A DNA stretch of 64,000 bases, taken from Escherichia phage DT571/2. This document shows, piece after piece, positions 24,422 to 31,408 of this stretch. The position numbers and the translations under genes are program-made. Location: sequence record NC_047749.1. One strand, 5' to 3'. The notes below the pieces were generated by a model, which was given only the letters and a program-made list of their open reading frames with translations, was not told where the DNA came from and did no database searches. The first letter of the stretch is position 1. Every line of letters starts with the position of its first letter.

Positions 24422-24528
24422 TAGATCTCCCCGATGTTAGAATTTGGTAGTTAGTAGTGGGTTTGAGTCGCTGTAGTCGTTCCGAGTGCCTTAGATCGCT
24501 GGGCTATCGAAGCATTAGAATATCTACA

Positions 24529-24819
24529 TCATACACTGTCTAAGTAAGAAGTATAATGGAATTTAGTTTCTCCAGTCTTATCTACTTCTACCTCAGTTCG
24601 TGGTACTTGACGAACCACACCATGAATCATCTTATAGCGAGTGCCTTTAGCTGGTTCATAATCTTTTGAGAATACTTGTTTAACCGTTACTACTTTATAC
24701 CCTTCACGCGGTGTTAGCACTACTACTTGATCACCTTCTTTGATTCTCCAAGAAGATGGAAATTCATAGGTGTATCTTTGATCACCAGTTTGGAATACTA
24801 CAGAAAGATAACGTTTCAT
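24529..24819 (-). CDS. hypothetical protein
   Basis: 96-aa ORF. Confidence 0.55.
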   Translation of the reverse strand: MKRYLSVVFQTGDQRYTYEFPSSWRIKEGDQVVVLTPREGYKVVTVKQVFSKDYEPAKGTRYKMIHGVVRQVPRTEVEVDKTGETKFHYTSYLDSV

Positions 24820-24849
24820 TTGGTTTCCATCTCATTAATTTATATAAAT

Positions 24850-24878
24850 ATTATAGCAATAAATAAGAGAGAAAGCAA
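24850..24878 (-). promoter_or_regulatory. T5-early-type promoter
   Basis: RC of TTGCTT-17-TATAAT. Confidence 0.55.
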
Positions 24879-24893
24879 ATGAATTTTTAAATT

Positions 24894-24968
24894 TGGTGCG
24901 GGATACGAGAGTCGAACTCGTGTCTACTGGTTGGAAGCCAGTTATTCTAGCCGCTGAACTAATCACGC
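24894..24968 (-). tRNA. tRNA-Gly (anticodon UCC)
   Basis: hand fold: encoded CCA, perfect T-arm ACGAG/TTCGACT/CTCGT, anticodon arm ACTGG-CTTCCAA-CCAGT. Confidence 0.7.
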
Positions 24969-24979
24969 ATTAATTTGGT

Positions 24980-25057
24980 TGGCAGGGGATATTGGATTTG
25001 AACCAATGATCTCGACTTCAAATGCCGTAGCTTTAGGCCAAGCTAAGCTAATCCCCA
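24980..25057 (-). tRNA. tRNA-Gln (anticodon UUG), U1-U72 mismatch
   Basis: hand fold: CCA, G73, T-arm ATTGG/TTCAAAT/CCAAT, anticodon loop ATTTGAA. Confidence 0.55.
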
Positions 25058-25063
25058 ATTGTT

Positions 25064-25139
25064 TGGCAGAAGGTAGTGGATTTGAACCACTGATCAGGGT
25101 TTCAGAGACCCCAGCCTTAACCGACTTGGCTCAGGTTCT
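25064..25139 (-). tRNA. tRNA-Gln (anticodon CUG), imperfect acceptor stem
   Basis: hand fold: CCA, G73, D-arm resembling E. coli tRNA-Gln, anticodon loop CTCTGAA; 5' boundary uncertain. Confidence 0.5.
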
Positions 25140-25303
25140 TCAAGGCGCTTACCTTCATGATCTACTCGAATGAGTCCACATCCTTCGCAAACCACAACTG
25201 CACCATAACCTTCTTTGACCTCAGCTTCTGTAATCAGACCAGAAAGATCACCAGTATCTCTGCCCCACATATCAATGGAGCATTGTTTGCAGAAATCAGC
25301 CAT
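25094..25303 (-). CDS. small zinc-ribbon-like protein; 3' end overlaps tRNA-Gln
   Basis: 69 aa; CxxC...CxxC (CKQC, CEGC). Confidence 0.4.
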   Translation of the reverse strand: MADFCKQCSIDMWGRDTGDLSGLITEAEVKEGYGAVVVCEGCGLIRVDHEGKRLEEPEPSRLRLGSLKP

Positions 25304-25305
25304 AA

Positions 25306-25533
25306 TTAATCCTTATTACAAGTGGTAGAGAGGATGGTACGATCGGAGATCCAACCGCCAGTGTAAGCACCATTGACTTTATATTCAGTCAAAGTACCGT
25401 GACCACGAATAGCGAAAACTGTTAGGGTTTTCGTGCCCCCATAACCATCTTTAACAGTTACGGTACAATCTAATGATGTGCCGATAGTGCAGCCAGCTAA
25501 AGTCAGAGCAGCAATCAATACTAAGTATTTCAT
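25306..25533 (-). CDS. lipoprotein
   Basis: 75 aa; signal peptide with lipobox LAGC. Confidence 0.55.
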   Translation of the reverse strand: MKYLVLIAALTLAGCTIGTSLDCTVTVKDGYGGTKTLTVFAIRGHGTLTEYKVNGAYTGGWISDRTILSTTCNKD

Positions 25534-25556
25534 GTTGTTATCCTTGTTAAGTTAAT

Positions 25557-25631
25557 TGGTGCATCCTCAGGGAATCGAACCCCAATCGTAAAGTTCGTGG
25601 CTTTACATTCTTTCCATTGAAATAAGGACGC
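25557..25631 (-). tRNA. tRNA-Arg (anticodon ACG)
   Basis: hand fold: CCA, perfect anticodon stem TAAAG/CTTTA, loop CCACGAA (C at position 33). Confidence 0.65.
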
Positions 25632-25637
25632 AATATT

Positions 25638-25714
25638 TGGGGTGGCTAGTGGAATTCGAATCCACATAGGCCTGATTCACAATCAGGATCATTAACCAAT
25701 TATGATATAGCCAC
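25638..25714 (-). tRNA. tRNA-His (anticodon GUG)
   Basis: hand fold: perfect acceptor GTGGCTA/TAGCCAC, T-arm GTGGA/TTCGAAT/TCCAC, anticodon loop TTGTGAA, CCA encoded. Confidence 0.8.
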
Positions 25715-25938
25715 AATTGAAAACTCGCAGGGTTAGCGAAACCATCCTCAATTAGCATGTTCTAGAATACTAATCAAGTTATCTCCTATTGCACGCAGCT
25801 CAAGACGAGTACGAATTTTCAATTGTGGCGGCTCTCAGAAACTCTTCTATTCTAGCCTCAGAAGCTTACCCCCGAACGCATGTCGGGAAAGTCTTTCCAA
25901 GAGCATCAAATAGCACCGTTACACTTTGAGCCATTATT

Positions 25939-26033
25939 TGGAGGTAGGTAAGGGGATCGAACCCTTACACCGTATCACTACGATCAACCGATTTCAAGTC
26001 GGAGTCCAGCGCCAGCCGTTGGATTGACCTACC
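25939..26033 (-). tRNA. tRNA-Ser (anticodon UGA), class II
   Basis: hand fold: perfect acceptor and T-arm, anticodon loop CTTGAAA, long variable arm. Confidence 0.7.
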
Positions 26034-26045
26034 ATATAAATTGTT

Positions 26046-26136
26046 TGGCGGAAGAGGAGAGATTTGAACTCTCAAGCCGTTTTACCAGTCAGCCACTTTC
26101 CAAGCGGTTTTCGTCGCCAATTCGATTTGCTCTTCC
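26046..26136 (-). tRNA. tRNA-Ser (anticodon GGA), class II
   Basis: hand fold: perfect acceptor GGAAGAG/CTCTTCC, T-arm GAGAG/TTCAAAT/CTCTC, loop TTGGAAA. Confidence 0.65.
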
Positions 26137-26172
26137 AATAATAAGATGATGCCTCTATCACGCCAGGCAGTT

Positions 26173-26245
26173 ACGCCTCGCTGGGATTCGAACCCATTAA
26201 AACAGCTCAACCGAGATAGTAGGTTTAATTTACTCTGACCATCAA
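26173..26245 (-). tRNA. tRNA-like element (T-arm only, no acceptor pairing found)
   Basis: canonical T-arm TGGG/TTCGAAT/CCCA at 26181..26197 but no complementary 5' acceptor located. Confidence 0.3.
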
Positions 26246-26248
26246 ATT

Positions 26249-26325
26249 TGGTGCGTGACAAGGGATTCGAACCCTCAAAACCCGACTTCTAGGGACGGTA
26301 TGTATGCCAATTCCATCAATCACGC
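26249..26325 (-). tRNA. tRNA, anticodon not confidently assigned (loop CCTAGAA would give UAG)
   Basis: hand fold: CCA, good acceptor and T-arm, anticodon stem with one U-U mismatch, D-arm unclear. Confidence 0.55.
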
Positions 26326-26330
26326 GTATT

Positions 26331-26405
26331 TGGTGGAGAAAGAGGGAGTTGAACCCTCGTCTTCTGCGTGCAAAGCAGATGTTCTACCATTAAACTATAT
26401 CCCCA
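26331..26405 (-). tRNA. tRNA-Ala (anticodon UGC)
   Basis: hand fold: CCA, T-arm GAGGG/TTCAACT/CCCTC, perfect anticodon arm TCTGC-TTTGCAC-GCAGA. Confidence 0.65.
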
Positions 26406-26642
26406 AATTCTTTAGTTTACTAAGGCTATTAGCTCGGCGTAACTACAGCACCTTCACTTCGAGCGGAAGGAACCGCGTCATCTCGCAAACCCGATACACT
26501 ATTCAGTTGCCGCTGAATCTAGTGGACTAATCTAGAACCTCCCCCAAATTGTAGGGATCGTGCTTTTTGGCAGCCAGTCCTAGGTCGAGCTAATACCTTA
26601 GTGAACTATGATGAGGATTTCTCCCCATCAATTTATATAAAT

Positions 26643-26671
26643 ATTATAACAAGAAATTAAGCATCAAGCAA
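26643..26671 (-). promoter_or_regulatory. T5-early-type promoter driving the tRNA cluster
   Basis: RC of TTGCTT-17-TATAAT; no ORF downstream, leads into tRNAs. Confidence 0.55.
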
Positions 26672-26772
26672 ATGAGTTTTTCCTTGAAATTGGTAGCGGG
26701 TTCCAGTACTGCCCTGGACTTACTTAGCTTATGAGACTAAGAAGAACTCTATGCCTTCCACCCGCAATTGTT

Positions 26773-26836
26773 TGGTCAGTGCGGCAGGACTCGAACCTGC
26801 GACCTGAAGCATCCAAGGCTCCCACGCTACGCACTG
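26773..26836 (-). tRNA. atypical 64-nt tRNA-like element (no room for a D-arm)
   Basis: CCA, perfect 7-bp acceptor CAGTGCG/CGCACTG and perfect T-arm GCAGG/TTCGAGT/CCTGC, only 29 nt between them. Confidence 0.4.
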
Positions 26837-26844
26837 AAAGTTTA

Positions 26845-27192
26845 TTAGTTTAACCGTAAAGTATTATCTACTTCACCATTAATTGTTCGGCATTCCTCTG
26901 GGATTGTCGGAGTGGCCTTGTATTCCCACCACTCAGCACCGTCATATTCCCCACGTTCTAGCCAAGTTCCATCGGCAAACCATACATTACCATAAAGTAA
27001 TTGTCCACCGTATCCAGAATCATATTCAAAGTCTAGGTTATTAAGAAAATCCTCAATATCTTCTTCTGTATAACCTAAAGGTAATACCCAGACTTTTTTA
27101 TCCCCATAATACCCGAATTCTATTTTAATACACTTAACTTTAGAATTGGTATTTTTTAAGGCGAGTAATAGCTCTTCTTTAGCATTACGCAT
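26845..27192 (-). CDS. hypothetical protein
   Basis: 115-aa ORF. Confidence 0.55.
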   Translation of the reverse strand: MRNAKEELLLALKNTNSKVKCIKIEFGYYGDKKVWVLPLGYTEEDIEDFLNNLDFEYDSGYGGQLLYGNVWFADGTWLERGEYDGAEWWEYKATPTIPEECRTINGEVDNTLRLN

Positions 27193-27217
27193 AGTATATT
27201 CTCATACTGAGTTAATT

Positions 27218-27291
27218 TGGCGCGACCGATGGGATTTGAACCCACATTCCCCGTGACAGGGGAGTACCATTACCAAGCCAGCCCCTGTCGC
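27218..27291 (-). tRNA. tRNA-Asp (anticodon GUC)
   Basis: hand fold: CCA, T-arm, anticodon loop CTGTCAC. Confidence 0.7.
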
Positions 27292-27300
27292 ATAATTCAT

Positions 27301-27486
27301 TTACTCATATTTGAGTTTTTCAATAGCTGCATTAAGTTCTTTTAGAGCTTCACGACGTTCTACCTGACCTTGAAGTTCTTCAAGAAGTTCCGCTTTCAGA
27401 GTCTCAATAATTTTACCACGAACCTTGATATTATTAATCAGATTATCACGATCAGCTTCTAGTCGAGCAATTGCATGAGTTGTCAT
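27301..27486 (-). CDS. small coiled-coil protein
   Basis: 61-aa ORF. Confidence 0.45.
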   Translation of the reverse strand: MTTHAIARLEADRDNLINNIKVRGKIIETLKAELLEELQGQVERREALKELNAAIEKLKYE

Positions 27487-27513
27487 ATCTATTTCCTCAG
27501 TTATTAATGAAAA

Positions 27514-27586
27514 TGGTATCTGTGGCTGAATTCGATGTCAGCAATGATAGCTGGTTGGCTACCGGTTTACTTAACTCTACACAGAA
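27514..27586 (-). tRNA. tRNA-like element with non-canonical loops (possible pseudo-tRNA)
   Basis: CCA plus 6/7 acceptor pairing, but T-loop and anticodon loop are 8 nt. Confidence 0.3.
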
Positions 27587-27588
27587 TT

Positions 27589-27666
27589 TGGCGGGCCGTG
27601 TAGGATTCGAACCACCAACCCCGAAGGGCACGGATTTACAGACCGCTGCAATAGCCATTCTGCCAA
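27589..27666 (-). tRNA. tRNA-like element with Tyr-like anticodon loop CTGTAAA (degenerate)
   Basis: CCA, weak T-stem, variable-arm hairpin CCC-TTCG-GGG, no acceptor pairing found. Confidence 0.35.
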
Positions 27667-27750
27667 CGATGTATATTTAAAAGTATTCAAATACTTGTTT
27701 AAACACTTTTAAATATGTTTCCAACTTAGATAACTATTATATCTAGGTTT

Positions 27751-27792
27751 AAGGCACTGAGCAAGTCAGATTTTGAAGAATTTGCTCAGTGC
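27751..27792. other. stable hairpin (11-bp stem GCACTGAGCAA / TTGCTCAGTGC)
   Basis: read directly; lies in leader between promoter at 27868 and tRNAs. Confidence 0.6.
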
Positions 27793-27867
27793 TATATTAG
27801 TTAGTCGAACTTAGGAGTAACAATTAAAGAGAATGGGAGTTCGAAAACTTCATCAATTTATATAACT

Positions 27868-27897
27868 ATTATATCAGAAATTTAAAGCAAAAGGCAA
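27868..27897 (-). promoter_or_regulatory. T5-early-type promoter (tRNA leader)
   Basis: RC of TTGCCT-18-TATAAT with conserved leader. Confidence 0.45.
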
Positions 27898-27927
27898 GTA
27901 CTTTTTTAAAAATTCTGTTTGGAGGAG

Positions 27928-28134
27928 CTAAACTCCAGATTCTTCAGCCAAGTCTAGACTAATAAGAGTTATAGCCATAATTGCCGCACCGTGTTCTTTT
28001 TCTCCGGTGTTTTTAGCAGAGTCTATAATACCCTTAATCTGTTCGTAATAACTTTTTACTTCTTGTTCAATGCCGGCCTCGGCTATCATGCCTTTAGTCA
28101 TGAGTCGTTGCATGGTAATTTCACGGTTAGCCAT
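27928..28134 (-). CDS. hypothetical protein
   Basis: 68-aa ORF. Confidence 0.45.
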   Translation of the reverse strand: MANREITMQRLMTKGMIAEAGIEQEVKSYYEQIKGIIDSAKNTGEKEHGAAIMAITLISLDLAEESGV

Positions 28135-28309
28135 GATGTTTCTCCAGTTTCATCTTTAATAGTTTACAAATGAAGTCAATATCTTCATCCGTGCCTAGAT
28201 CTCTATCTTCAAGAGTTGCCTTGAAGTTTTTAGTCAACTCCATAAGGATGACTTCCCTAGAACGACGTGTTGGCGGAGGTGGATGTCTATACATCTTATT
28301 TCCTTAATT

Positions 28310-28384
28310 TGGTGGGTCGGAGGAGAATCTAACTCCTACTCGTTAGCTTATGAGGCCACCGCTTTAACTTTAAGCTACCGACCC
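28310..28384 (-). tRNA. tRNA-Met (anticodon CAU)
   Basis: hand fold: perfect acceptor GGGTCGG/CCGACCC, perfect T-arm, D-stem GCTT/AAGC, loop CTCATAA. Confidence 0.75.
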
Positions 28385-28390
28385 TATGTT

Positions 28391-28479
28391 TGGCGGAAGA
28401 AGCGGGAATCGAACCCACAAGGCTATATTTCAAACCGACAGATTAGCAATCTGCTGCAATACCGTTATGCTATTCTTCC
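28391..28479 (-). tRNA. tRNA-Ser (anticodon GCU), class II
   Basis: hand fold: perfect acceptor GGAAGAA/TTCTTCC, anticodon arm GCAGA-TTGCTAA-TCTGT, long variable arm. Confidence 0.7.
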
Positions 28480-28500
28480 GAATTTATAAGATATATTATA

Positions 28501-29037
28501 TTAGAAATTTAGCTTCATAGCAAGAAAATTTTTCAAGTTTTCGGTAGACATCTCATCCACATCTACAGGAGAAACAAACCCATCTAATTGTCTAGCAAAT
28601 TTTTCACCGGCAGGATCATTATCCCCAACAGCTACCAATTTAAAAGGTAGTAATTTCAATTGCTTTAACAACGCTTTTCCGGGGGAAGAACCCAACATTG
28701 CTAGGGCAGGATAACCAGCATTATGTAATGCTACAGCCTTAAATACAGATTCAGCAATCAATACTACTTTTTCATCCCCATTGAGAGTTTCTAGCCCCCA
28801 TACACACTGTGTGGTAGAATAAGTAAAATATCTAGCTTCAGAGGGGCACTTACCATGACCTTTTGGAGCAGAAGGATTATAAATCTGATAGCCTCTCAGC
28901 ATCCCAGAGAAGTCGTACAATGGGACTGTTAGCCATCCCTCCGGGCTTAACCAGCAATGATATTTATCTGTATCAAACCCTCTGGATAAGAGATGTTCTG
29001 TTAGTTCATCAACAGTCATATTAGATTCCTCTCTCAA
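28501..29037 (-). CDS. small Toprim-like domain protein
   Basis: 178 aa; LIAESVFKA and VAVGDNDPAGEKFA resemble Toprim E and DxD motifs. Confidence 0.5.
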   Translation of the reverse strand: MREESNMTVDELTEHLLSRGFDTDKYHCWLSPEGWLTVPLYDFSGMLRGYQIYNPSAPKGHGKCPSEARYFTYSTTQCVWGLETLNGDEKVVLIAESVFKAVALHNAGYPALAMLGSSPGKALLKQLKLLPFKLVAVGDNDPAGEKFARQLDGFVSPVDVDEMSTENLKNFLAMKLNF

Positions 29038-29048
29038 ATTATAAATAT

Positions 29049-29077
29049 ATTATACAGAGAATTTAGCATTCAAGCAA
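29049..29077 (-). promoter_or_regulatory. T5-early-type promoter
   Basis: RC of TTGCTT-17-TATAAT. Confidence 0.55.
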
Positions 29078-29163
29078 TTGAATTTTTAAACTTTTTAGTG
29101 GAAAATCTCAAGACATTTAATGGCAGCACGTTGTTGCTGTAATAAGAGTATATGGTTCTAAAG

Positions 29164-29206
29164 AACCAAACAATAAAGCCCTGCGCTCTCCAGGGAACGC
29201 AGGGCT
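29164..29206 (-). terminator. rho-independent terminator
   Basis: 9-bp GC-rich stem AGCCCTGCG/CGCAGGGCT followed on the minus strand by a U-rich tract. Confidence 0.65.
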
Positions 29207-29230
29207 TACTTCAGAGATTACATGCGGGTG

Positions 29231-30178
29231 TTATTTGTTACGCATGTCCATGATCATCTGGCCATCGTAACCAGTTCCCACAACTGTTTGCGGTACACCA
29301 CCTTGATACTTCTGAGCACGAATCATTTCAACTTCTAGTTGTTTCCAACGAATCATCTCAGGAGTAATGGTACGTTGCAGAGCGGCGTTAGCCTCAGCTT
29401 CTTTCTTAGCTGCGTACAGTTTAGCATCTGCATCACGTTCGTTTGCAATAGCTTGGTTGTTACGAGCTTCACGATCTGCTTCTGCTTGTTTAACCTTCTG
29501 CTGTGCTTCTTGTTCAACACGAGCCAACTCAGCTTTCGCAGCATTAACTTGTTCTTCACGAACTTTGGTATTCTGTACCTGTTCCATGATTACAGGCGGC
29601 AAAGTAATATCCTGAAGGAACACTTGCTTAACTGTGTAACCATAAGGGCGTGCATACTCTTCAACTTCCTGTTGAATTGCAGTTTGTAATTGAGCCTGAA
29701 TTTTAGCATCAAACAAATCTTGTGCTTTAGGAACAGACTTGCCGAACTCACGAATAGTAGACAGTAATTTTTCAGTTACATATTTGTCTAACGCTTGATC
29801 CTGAGTACCTGCATTAATACGGTTAATCGGTGCCTTAGAACCATCAAATTGTAACATAACAGTCAGGTCAACAGTGGATTTAAACTTATCCTGACTAGGA
29901 ACCTGAAGTTTATCTAATTTTACAGCAATATCTTTTGTACTAAAAGTATCGAAAGATGCAAAGGGGTTTACAAGATGGAAGCCAGGTAATACTGGGTTAG
30001 GATCTACTTTACCAAGAAATGTTTGGGTTTTAACCGTACCATCGGAAACAATAGTATATGAATTAAAAGCTAGGATTAAACCTGCTAAACCAACTACAGC
30101 ACCAATACCCCAACGTTTAATAGTGCGCATTACTTTTTGCTCAGAAGTCAGTTCTTTCATATTTTTAGTATTAAACAT
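29231..30178 (-). CDS. SPFH/band-7 (HflC/prohibitin-like) membrane protein
   Basis: 315 aa; N-terminal TM helix, SPFH-like core, Ala/Glu/Lys-rich coiled-coil tail. Confidence 0.7.
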   Translation of the reverse strand: MFNTKNMKELTSEQKVMRTIKRWGIGAVVGLAGLILAFNSYTIVSDGTVKTQTFLGKVDPNPVLPGFHLVNPFASFDTFSTKDIAVKLDKLQVPSQDKFKSTVDLTVMLQFDGSKAPINRINAGTQDQALDKYVTEKLLSTIREFGKSVPKAQDLFDAKIQAQLQTAIQQEVEEYARPYGYTVKQVFLQDITLPPVIMEQVQNTKVREEQVNAAKAELARVEQEAQQKVKQAEADREARNNQAIANERDADAKLYAAKKEAEANAALQRTITPEMIRWKQLEVEMIRAQKYQGGVPQTVVGTGYDGQMIMDMRNK

Positions 30179-30212
30179 GTATTTCCTTTGTTTTAGTTAC
30201 AGTTAATAAAAT

Positions 30213-30287
30213 TGGCCGAGGTGACAGGATTCGAACCTGCATAAAGGAATTTAGAAGACTCCTGCCTCTCCCTTAGACTACACCCCG
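30213..30287 (-). tRNA. tRNA-Arg (anticodon UCU)
   Basis: hand fold: CCA, acceptor with one G-U, T-arm, anticodon arm GGAGT-CTTCTAA-ATTCC. Confidence 0.65.
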
Positions 30288-30788
30288 TTTAAGTATTTTT
30301 AAGAACTCTCGTAAAAACTCTTAAAAATACAGACGATACCGGGAGAGTCATAAGTCTCACTCATTAAGTATTTCAAGACAAAATACAGTAACGTCTATTA
30401 TTTTCCAGTTTAAGTCAAGGTGACTTAGTGGTTATGCCCTGCGGTATACTGAGGACTCGGTTAGGCTAGGGTCATGACTCCCCGCTTTTTGCTGCTACTC
30501 AACAGGAATTATCGCGAATTACCTGTGCTATTGTGCACCATTAGTGGCATCTCTCATGCCAGCATTTCCCACTTTGTGGATAGTTTGAAAAACTACTCCG
30601 ATATGGAGGGAGAACTTCACTATCCTAGAATACCTTCTAAAGTTCTTCTTTAGCCTGGACATAGTTAAATCGTAATAAAACTATTCAGCAGACTGGTTGG
30701 TTAGCCTGGAACCAACTACCGCGTGGTTTAGGCAGTGCGCAACTAACCTCGGAAGCTTTTACGTTAAAAGCACCAGTTATCCAGTTCT

Positions 30789-30860
30789 TACCGATCGTAG
30801 GATTCGAACCTACATCTTCCACCAGTTACGGCTTGATAATACCGTTTATACTAGATCGGC
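30789..30860 (-). tRNA. tRNA, CCA not encoded, anticodon undetermined
   Basis: perfect T-arm GTAGG/TTCGAAT/CCTAC and 7-bp acceptor with one G-U. Confidence 0.5.
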
Positions 30861-30935
30861 AGTGTTACTACATAAGTGATTTCCACACCCCACTATCAAT
30901 AAATTAGGGAAGAATTACTCTCTAATTTATGAATA

Positions 30936-30964
30936 TATTATACAGAATATATAAGCATTTAGCA
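30936..30964 (-). promoter_or_regulatory. T5-early-type promoter (leads into tRNA at 30789)
   Basis: RC of TTGCTA-17-TATAAT. Confidence 0.55.
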
Positions 30965-30973
30965 AATGAATTT

Positions 30974-31408
30974 TTAGAAAAATTCACTAGCAATCAGAGC
31001 GGCTGTTTTACCATCATAACGCCCTGGAAACTCTGCCTTAACAGTTTTCATTAAGAGAGCTTTGGTAATACCTGGGTTTAGCTTAACCAATTCTGCAAAA
31101 TATTTACGAATTTCAGTTTCAGTCAGTTGACTTGGCTGATACTCTTGCAGCATGAAATAAAGCAGTTGCTCGTAGTCTACATCAGTAGGAACTTTCGTAC
31201 CAACTTTAATAGCACGCTGCTTTGCAGTTTCTAGAGCTTTAATCTGGGCTTTCAGATAAGCTACGAACTCGGTTCGAGTAACAACGTCTTTATTAATGCG
31301 TTGCAAGTCACCAATCATAGTCTGGAGATTGATTGCCCGCTCTTTGTCACCGTGGATACGTGCTAGACTAAGCAGTCCACGAAGGGTCATTAGAATATTT
31401 TCACCCAT
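30974..31408 (-). CDS. hypothetical protein
   Basis: 144-aa ORF. Confidence 0.55.
   Translation of the reverse strand: MGENILMTLRGLLSLARIHGDKERAINLQTMIGDLQRINKDVVTRTEFVAYLKAQIKALETAKQRAIKVGTKVPTDVDYEQLLYFMLQEYQPSQLTETEIRKYFAELVKLNPGITKALLMKTVKAEFPGRYDGKTAALIASEFF

Follow-up and report, generated by a model that had tools for sequence, protein, structure and literature searches.

Through computational analysis of a 64,000-nucleotide (nt) stretch of the Escherichia phage DT571/2 genome (NC_047749.1; the whole stretch is referred to as the window), a cluster of 14 transfer RNA (tRNA) genes has been located on the minus strand at 24894-30861. Judged by its sequence, this segment is the tRNA gene region, presumably transcribed early, of a T5-like phage of the DT57C lineage (Tequintavirus). 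The cluster is probably a reduced and partly eroded one that supplements codons rare in the host, and the cytosine found at position 33 (C33) of two of its tRNAs, in place of uridine (U33), a recent variant that is tolerated.

The region as such is already known, the same tRNAs and stable RNAs being annotated in the GenBank record of phage DT57C. In a nucleotide search the interval 24800-30900 matched Escherichia phage DT57C (Tequintavirus) over its full length, with 98.9% identity across 6101 nt, and 554 records of T5-like phages gave matches to it. The annotation tables of DT57C, BF23 and T5 are collinear with the window, with the same genes in the same order. The tRNAs of DT57C follow each other as Gly-UCC, Gln-UUG, Gln-CUG, Arg-ACG, His, Ser-UGA, Ser-GGA, Leu-UAG, Ala, Pro, Asp, Ile(CAU), Ser-GCU and Arg-UCU, and the stable RNAs RNAIII, RNAI, RNA2H, RNA3 and RNAX are annotated in the same stretch. 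A larger ancestral layout, including promoters, a bidirectional terminator and homing endonucleases, is present in the BF23 and T5 records. Throughout the region, tRNA genes of one strand and with an encoded CCA alternate with small open reading frames (ORFs) and with the stable RNAs I, III, 2H, 3 and X.

At default thresholds ARAGORN reported 11 tRNAs in the whole window, all on the minus strand and within 24894-30861. The Rfam model RF00005 (gathering cut-off 29 bits) gave 12 matches at or above the cut-off, with 39-72 bits and E = 7e-14 to 1e-4; one of them, of 61 nt at 26776-26836, lacks a D-loop and corresponds to tRNA-Pro. Sub-threshold matches to this model lie at 25943-26033, 26050-26136, 27221-27291 (27.9 bits) and 27597-27668, and relaxed ARAGORN thresholds added Ser-UGA, Ser-GGA and Asp-GUC. 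Together with the DT57C annotation, both programs give a total of 14 tRNA genes, all ending in CCA; the tRNA-like fold in the 5' part of RNAX (30788-30861) makes a fifteenth element. Minimum-free-energy folding, applied as a side check only, returned the cloverleaf as the best fold for 6 of the 14 candidates, which is usual for unmodified tRNA sequences. The leftward tRNA cluster that an initial annotation, made from the sequence alone, had placed at 24894-30860 was recovered there by ARAGORN and Rfam, and the tRNA identities it named agree in every case with the program calls and the DT57C annotation. Its count of at least 15 convincing tRNAs stands in so far as 14 genes and the RNAX fold exist, but Pro, Asp, Gln-CUG and the RNAX element are defective. 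The tRNAs left unassigned in it are most likely to be found among Leu-UAG, Pro-UGG and the RNAX element.

For comparison with the host, 24 tRNA genes of Escherichia coli K-12, spanning every isoacceptor in the cluster, were parsed into stems and loops. The phage tRNAs share 59-78% identity with these isoacceptors. The anticodon loop (positions 32-38) equals the host loop in six tRNAs (Gly, Ser-UGA, Ala, Asp, CAU and Arg-UCU) and departs from it in the other eight; canonical structures identical to those of the host, which would have refuted the initial annotation, are not what these values show. Position 33 is U in 24 of 24 E. coli genes and in 12 of the 14 tRNAs of the window, and C in Arg-ACG and Leu-UAG. 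The C33 of Arg-ACG (loop CCACGAA) had been noticed earlier and is confirmed; the second, in Leu-UAG (CCUAGAA), had been missed, and the U1-U72 mismatch, formerly ascribed to several tRNAs, occurs in Gln-UUG only.

The family comparison panel consisted of DT57C, BF23, T5 and 25 T5-like IMG/VR loci, to which Gostya9 and Sds2 were added. Traits conserved in the relatives are the U1·U72 of Gln-UUG (T5 and all others), the A73 and U4·C69 of Gly, the Ala mismatch, the short-arm Leu and the His sequence. On this comparison the unusual features of the cluster would fall into three classes. The first comprises apparent family idiosyncrasies, conserved and compatible with function: Gln-UUG U1·U72, Gly A73, Ser-UGA U73, the short-arm Leu and His U-1. 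The glutaminyl-tRNA synthetase GlnRS must open the 1-72 pair, and the U·U of Gln-UUG at 1-72 fits glutamine identity and is no defect. To the second class, that of apparently rare and recent point changes, belong Arg-ACG C33, Leu-UAG C33 and Gln-UUG A32. The third is seemingly outright erosion.

The distribution of the two C33 alleles has been established with 31-nt queries centred on position 33, searched with megablast at an exact 28-nt word, so that only the exact allele is retrieved, among 50,697 phage records. Arg-ACG C33 was present in seven records (four genomes: DT57C, Gostya9, vB_SabS_Sds2 and vB_SenS_PYC03) and its U33 counterpart in 197; Leu-UAG C33 was present in four records (two genomes: DT57C and Gostya9) and the U33 form in 154. 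Among IMG/VR and metagenome contigs scanned for the C33 alleles of Arg and Leu, only U33 was encountered. Both C33 alleles thus appear to be rare, recent and derived. Sequencing error has been rejected as their source, the same base being present in three independent records (DT57C, Gostya9 and Sds2), and so has C-to-U editing at position 33, as we know of no such activity in E. coli.

Within the T5-like panel, ARAGORN at default settings, with an encoded CCA required, yielded 496 genes from 34 loci, representing 175 distinct alleles. C33 occurs in 18 of these genes (3.6%) and in 7 of the distinct alleles; a purine is never found at this position, and the context is always C32-C33-NNN-A37-A38. 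Two families carry C33 as a fixed base: tRNA-Lys(UUU) of the BF23 type (loop CCUUUAA), in about 90 T5-like records, and tRNA-Ile(GAU) (loop CCGAUAA), in about 175 records, among them those of Klebsiella phages and of Vibrio phage JSF10. According to the BF23 GenBank record, a version of its tRNA-Lys (loop CCUUUAA) with a CUA anticodon is an effective amber suppressor, and the same is recorded for a CUA-anticodon version of its Leu, which is the U33 allele. Because a C33 tRNA-Lys is described there as a functional suppressor backbone, C33 is compatible with tRNA function. The anticodon stem-loop of the BF23 tRNA-Lys, GCGGA-CCUUUAA-UCCGU (locus L002, 4246-4323), recurs without change in the tRNA-Lys of the Aeromonas T4-like phages 44RR2.8t, phiAS4 and AS-gz. 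Of the 191 within-family substitution events counted in the panel, 2 fall on position 33, roughly the per-site average, and this count lends no support to hypervariability at the position. T-loop positions change at a rate similar to that of position 33, which suggests that constraint on the tRNAs of T5-like phages is generally relaxed.

The second line of evidence concerns the loss of tRNA genes. The 14 genes of the window serve 10-11 amino acids, compared with the near-complete set (about 20-25 genes for almost every amino acid) of T5-like phages; the reduction is of the kind seen in DT57C. ARAGORN and the DT57C and T5 annotations indicate no gene in the window for Thr, Val, Lys, fMet, Gly-GCC, Asn, Cys, Phe, Trp, Glu or Tyr, and about ten of the T5 tRNAs appear to have been deleted in this lineage. 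Relative to DT57C, a 175-bp deletion has left a chimera to which tRNA-Ile(GAU) contributes its 5' half and tRNA-Met its 3' half, joined at a CGGA common to both and devoid of an anticodon arm; this remnant lies at 24445..24513 on the minus strand, just outside the studied range. Compared with BF23 and DT57C, tRNA-Pro has lost 12 nt of its D-arm between direct repeats of GTAGCG. The junction is absent from the 50,697 phage records; the deletion is private to this genome and may be an assembly artefact. Gln-CUG, Asp and Pro are damaged genes, and three remnants accompany them (fMet-like, Tyr-like and the Ile/Met fusion). The C5·C68, C6·C67 and G8 of Gln-CUG are confined within the panel to the window, DT57C and Gostya9. 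These observations indicate a region that is apparently undergoing reductive evolution in this lineage. Such loss is tolerated, since T5 mutants without 11 or 17 tRNA genes are viable (PMC12409363).

What has been retained corresponds to the codon preferences of the phage. Relative to approximate host frequencies, the window ORFs use CUA 5.0 times, AGA 3.9 times, AUA 2.4 times and GGA 1.6 times as often as E. coli, and each of these codons has a cognate among the retained tRNAs: Leu-UAG, Arg-UCU, the CAU tRNA (Ile2) and Gly-UCC, respectively. Codon supplementation as the main selective reason for the retained tRNAs fits this pattern. Since Leu-UAG is cognate to the most over-used of the rare codons, its C33 form is probably not a dead gene. 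By analogy with T5 and BF23, several sigma-70 promoters would drive leftward polycistronic transcripts carrying the CCA-encoding tRNAs, the small ORFs and the stable RNAs I, III, 2H, 3 and X, and host enzymes would process these transcripts to mature tRNAs. The mature tRNAs would then top up the host pool, mainly for CUA, AGA, AUA and GGA, codons over-used by the AT-rich phage and poorly read by E. coli. The C33 alleles would be tolerated in this setting, as near-neutral or mildly deleterious changes rather than demonstrated counter-defence adaptations.

Several points weigh against a supplementing cluster in which C33 is merely tolerated. The codon comparison, covering 60 non-overlapping ORFs of the window, relies on an approximate E. 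coli K-12 codon table. An inactivating change in Leu-UAG should be costly, given that this tRNA reads the most over-used rare codon. Arg C33 stands on different backgrounds, T16/T48 in the window and C16/C48 in Sds2, and its U33 alleles are found on T16/C48 and C16/C48; an origin of this kind would need either recurrent mutation or recombination within 17 nt, and recurrence is suggested. Sds2 carries its Arg C33 in an otherwise intact set of 29 tRNAs, so that C33 is not limited to decaying clusters. In the DT57C lineage, three changes at position 33 (Arg C33, Leu C33 and the G33 of DT57C Ile) fall among about 15 lineage-specific substitutions, with p of about 0.01 in a rough, post hoc estimate. 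The DT57C tRNA-Ile(GAU) in question (locus L001, 1140-1214) combines G33 (loop CGGAUAA) with a 2-nt deletion in the T-arm, and its Gostya9 copy has U33; by its sequence the DT57C gene is clearly decaying. Substitutions in tRNAs and flanks, compared between the window, DT57C and Gostya9 to see whether the C33 genes are still under purifying selection, were uninformative, since divergence is mosaic and the remnants (fMet-like, Tyr-like and the eroded Asp) show zero differences as well.

A different interpretation holds that the anticodon loops have been remodelled adaptively: U33 to C, together with C32 to A in Gln-UUG, would block enzymes that read or cut at U33, either PrrC-like nucleases or the deaminase TadA, so that Arg-ACG keeps A34, while the altered tRNAs still translate and sustain phage synthesis under tRNA attack. 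PrrC cuts tRNA-Lys(UUU) between U33 and U34, and in a study of the yeast gamma-toxin anticodon nuclease a purine at position 32 or a G at 33 reportedly blocks cleavage. The recurrence of C33 in T5-like tRNAs, always as C and in a constant context, its fixation in the Lys(UUU) and Ile(GAU) families and its presence in Arg on two haplotype backgrounds speak for this interpretation. So do the contacts of TadA with its target sequence U33-A34-C35-G36, in which U33 is hydrogen-bonded in a base-specific manner at O4 and N3 (PMC10586758); C33 should, by inference, impair inosine formation in the phage Arg-ACG. That phage tRNAs escape tRNA-cleaving defences is a published hypothesis (van den Berg 2023, PMC10264068), in a paper that mentions neither 'phage T5' nor position 33. 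For T5 itself, tRNA-Lys, Thr and Asn neutralise the AriB nuclease of PARIS (PMC11464382, PMC12409363) and tRNA-Tyr rescues the toxicity of retron Eco7 (Ec78) (as stated in the BF23 paper PMC10644984). The view of the initial annotation that anticodon-loop changes in T5-family tRNAs evade such defences is thus supported as regards evasion of PARIS and retron Eco7, but the AriB-blocking changes of tRNA-Lys belong to the anticodon stem (positions 39 and 41) and not to the loop (PMC12409363), and according to ARAGORN the experimentally validated Lys, Thr, Asn and Tyr tRNAs are all absent from the cluster and from the whole window. The Arg and Leu C33 alleles have moreover not spread, being present in about 2-3.5% of records; neighbouring tRNAs are plainly damaged in the same lineage, in which DT57C has G33 in an Ile gene with a T-arm deletion, and position 33 is not hypervariable in the panel. 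No paper in the searched literature links position 33 with phage tRNAs, older T5 and BF23 tRNA work being largely outside its coverage. The A38 and C39 of Arg-ACG, between which colicin D cuts, are unchanged in the phage tRNA, and a nuclease directed at positions 33/34 of Arg-ACG or Leu-UAG is not known to us. The phage Asp loop equals that of the host, and no evasion signal is given by known colicin sites in the retained tRNAs, of which Arg, His and Asp are targets of colicins D and E5 only (cf. PMC10264068). Adaptive remodelling is therefore regarded as unlikely, and we are equally doubtful of its broader form, in which heritable C33, fixed in Lys-UUU and Ile-GAU and recent in Leu-UAG and, apparently twice, in Arg-ACG, is a selected escape from host enzymes that read U33. 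If true, C33 would represent a class of anticodon-loop countermeasure not found described in the searched literature.

At the other extreme, the C33 tRNAs and most of the cluster could be non-functional relics, with the phage wholly dependent on host tRNAs. The large deletions, the three remnants and the three damaged genes of this lineage would agree with such decay, as would the viability of T5 mutants deprived of many tRNAs and the near-universality of U33 in cellular tRNAs, including all the E. coli genes compared. However, most of the retained genes (His, Ser-GGA, Ala, Arg-UCU, Ser-GCU and Gly) match alleles of dozens of other phages exactly or almost exactly, whereas their flanks have diverged by 5-7%, and the retained set fits the over-used rare codons. 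The C33 families persist in some 90 and 175 genomes, with one member recorded as a working suppressor, and the changes at position 33 in intact genes are all U to C and never to a purine. Complete decay is accordingly very improbable, and a reduced cluster that supplements rare codons and tolerates C33 is preferred over both alternatives.

The individual genes, all on the minus strand, are described in the order of their coordinates. tRNA-Gly(UCC) (24894..24968; ARAGORN, Rfam 63.9 bits) has a U4·C69 mismatch and A73, both conserved in relatives; the discriminator of E. coli glyT is U73. tRNA-Gln(UUG) (24980..25057; ARAGORN, Rfam) combines U1·U72 with A32 and an A27·A43 mismatch, the last two confined to the DT57C lineage (window, DT57C and Gostya9). 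tRNA-Gln(CUG) (25064..25139; Rfam) has C5·C68 and C6·C67 mismatches and G8 replacing U8, and overlaps an ORF at 25094-25303; it is probably a pseudogene, and the T5 copy is flagged as such in the T5 record. tRNA-Arg(ACG) (25557..25631; ARAGORN, Rfam 47 bits) is, apart from C33, an intact cloverleaf. tRNA-His(GUG) (25638..25715; ARAGORN, Rfam) shows 100% identity to the copies of T5, BF23 and almost every locus of the panel. Its position -1 (window position 25715) is U opposite C73, where E. coli hisR has G-1; the G-1:C73 pair is the main identity element for HisRS in E. coli.

tRNA-Ser(UGA) (25939..26033) is a class II tRNA that scores 38.3 bits with the tRNA-Sec model and remains below default thresholds; it folds as a four-arm cloverleaf and has the discriminator U73, as in T5. 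tRNA-Ser(GGA) (26046..26136), called by relaxed ARAGORN and the DT57C annotation, is identical to Ser2 of BF23. tRNA-Leu(UAG) (26249..26325; ARAGORN, Rfam 42.6 bits) is 77 nt long, with C33 and A37 in its anticodon loop, and the sole difference in the BF23 allele is U33. The 77-nt tRNA-Leu of T5-like phages (UAG in the window, UAA in Sds2, locus L039, 2026-2102) has a short variable arm and a Leu-like 3-bp D-stem, and so departs from the class II architecture of bacterial tRNA-Leu. tRNA-Ala(UGC) (26331..26404; ARAGORN, Rfam 72.3 bits) carries G3·U70 and a U6·U67 mismatch common to its relatives. An fMet-like remnant (26691..26766) keeps the acceptor stem and a CAU anticodon arm, with degenerate D- and T-arms (T-loop GGCAGUA); it is called neither by ARAGORN at default settings nor by Rfam, and lies without annotation in DT57C directly downstream of Pro, at the site of tRNA-fMet in T5 and BF23. 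tRNA-Pro(UGG) (26773..26836; Rfam 44.6 bits) has a D-loop of 0 nt, its D-arm being missing.

tRNA-Asp(GUC) (27218..27291; 27.9 bits) is eroded in two places: bases 6 and 67 are mismatched (A6·G67), and the loss of 3 nt has reduced the variable loop to 2 nt and produced a C27·A43 mismatch. Outside the window, these two defects occur in DT57C and Gostya9 only. In a Tyr(GUA)-like remnant (27589..27672; Rfam 25.1 bits over model positions 5-66) the first three acceptor pairs are broken, but the T-arm is intact, CCA is present and the variable arm is long. Its homologue in Sds2 is an intact 83-nt gene with the anticodon GUU and a long variable arm. The tRNA with anticodon CAU (28310..28384; ARAGORN, Rfam 60.6 bits) is Ile2 in the DT57C, T5 and BF23 annotations and Met according to ARAGORN. 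Position 56 of its T-loop (UUAGAUU) is A, the GG motif is missing from its D-loop (AAAGUUA), and a U19-A56 pair may replace the usual tertiary pair G19-C56. tRNA-Ser(GCU) (28391..28479; ARAGORN, Rfam 57.9 bits) is one substitution away from the T5/BF23 allele, and tRNA-Arg(UCU) (30213..30287; ARAGORN, Rfam 49.3 bits) is identical to it.

The stable RNAs, likewise on the minus strand, were placed mostly by transfer of the DT57C annotation (offset -692 for RNAIII): RNAIII at 25716..25821, RNAI at 25826..25932 and RNA2H at 26424..26595. The tRNA-like RNA3 (27514..27586) is a sequence match to RNA3 of T5, and RNAX (30288..30923) follows the DT57C annotation. In its 5' part (30788-30861) RNAX contains a tRNA-like fold that lacks CCA and has an abnormal loop, UAACUGG; this fold was reported as 'Ser-ACU' by ARAGORN and with 39 bits by Rfam. 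Compared with loci L013 (15432-15505) and L002 (13988-14061), its 8-bp acceptor-like stem displays two compensatory double changes: at pair 7 the U-A of the window corresponds to C-G in T5, and at pair 6 the A-U of both the window and T5 corresponds to U-A in BF23. Because of these compensatory changes, selection on the tRNA-like structure itself is suggested; it is perhaps a processing signal.

Putative control signals have been identified at positions homologous to those annotated in T5 and BF23. Sigma-70 promoter-like sites with 10 of 12 consensus matches occur on the minus strand at 30937..30965, upstream of RNAX and at the position of P16-17, and at 28495..28523, upstream of Ser-GCU and the CAU tRNA and at the position of P15b; a further sigma-70 consensus match lies at 27868-27897. 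An intrinsic terminator hairpin of 13 pairs (29176..29207, minus strand) is homologous to the annotated bidirectional terminator. The ORFs in and beside the cluster encode a Toprim-only protein of 172 amino acids inside the tRNA region (28501-29019, minus strand; Toprim_2, 24 bits), an SPFH/Band 7 membrane protein (29231-30178), a DUF7337 protein (27301-27486) and, at 30974-31408 on the minus strand, a product of 144 amino acids whose YqeY/GatB-like match (20.7 bits) falls below the 27-bit cut-off. The T5 RefSeq record names the homologue of this last ORF 'tRNA amidotransferase'. None of these ORFs is decisive for the interpretation of the cluster.

As it stands, the finding adds little, since the region is of textbook T5 type and its closest relative has been annotated gene by gene. 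Its value is that of a natural example of a phage tRNA set whittled down by deletions between tRNAs, chimeric remnants and erosion of single genes, with the rare-codon tRNAs kept. U33, almost invariant in cells, is replaced by C in about 4% of the tRNA genes of T5-like phages, two of them here. If selection proved to lie behind this pattern, an as yet unrecognised host activity reading position 33 would be implied, for which the pattern would serve as a simple sequence marker.

Among known systems the closest are the tRNA regions of T5, BF23 and DT57C (NC_005859, AJ604530 and KM979354, respectively), which have the same genes, order, strand, stable RNAs, small ORFs, promoters and bidirectional terminator. 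The His, Arg-UCU and Ser-GGA of the window are among the tRNAs 100% identical to T5/BF23 alleles; in contrast to the 14 genes found here, the T5 region has 25 annotated tRNA genes, one of them flagged as a pseudogene. With DT57C and Gostya9 the window has rare alleles in common (Leu C33, Arg C33, Gln A32 and the eroded Asp and Gln-CUG), and it differs from DT57C by two further deletions, of 175 bp at the Ile/Met fusion and of 12 nt in the D-arm of Pro. The T5 tRNAs active against PARIS (Lys, Thr and Asn) and retron Eco7 (Tyr) come from the same genomic region and phage family and likewise diverge in sequence from the host isoacceptors, but all four are missing here and the mapped Lys changes are at 39/41 and not at 33.

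The tRNA cluster of phage T4 consists of eight tRNAs and two stable RNAs, is dispensable in the laboratory and is thought to supplement rare codons. It is a polycistronic phage tRNA operon with co-transcribed stable RNAs, as the DT571/2 cluster presumably is, but is unrelated in sequence, much smaller and without interspersed ORFs or homing endonucleases. With regard to C33, the loop of the human cytoplasmic initiator tRNA is CCCAUAA, and U33 was reportedly dispensable for amber suppression in the yeast suppressor variants attributed to Bare et al., 1983. In these cases, too, a tRNA with C33 is still active on the ribosome, although they concern an initiator and laboratory constructs, whereas the C33 tRNAs of the DT571/2 cluster are phage elongator tRNAs.

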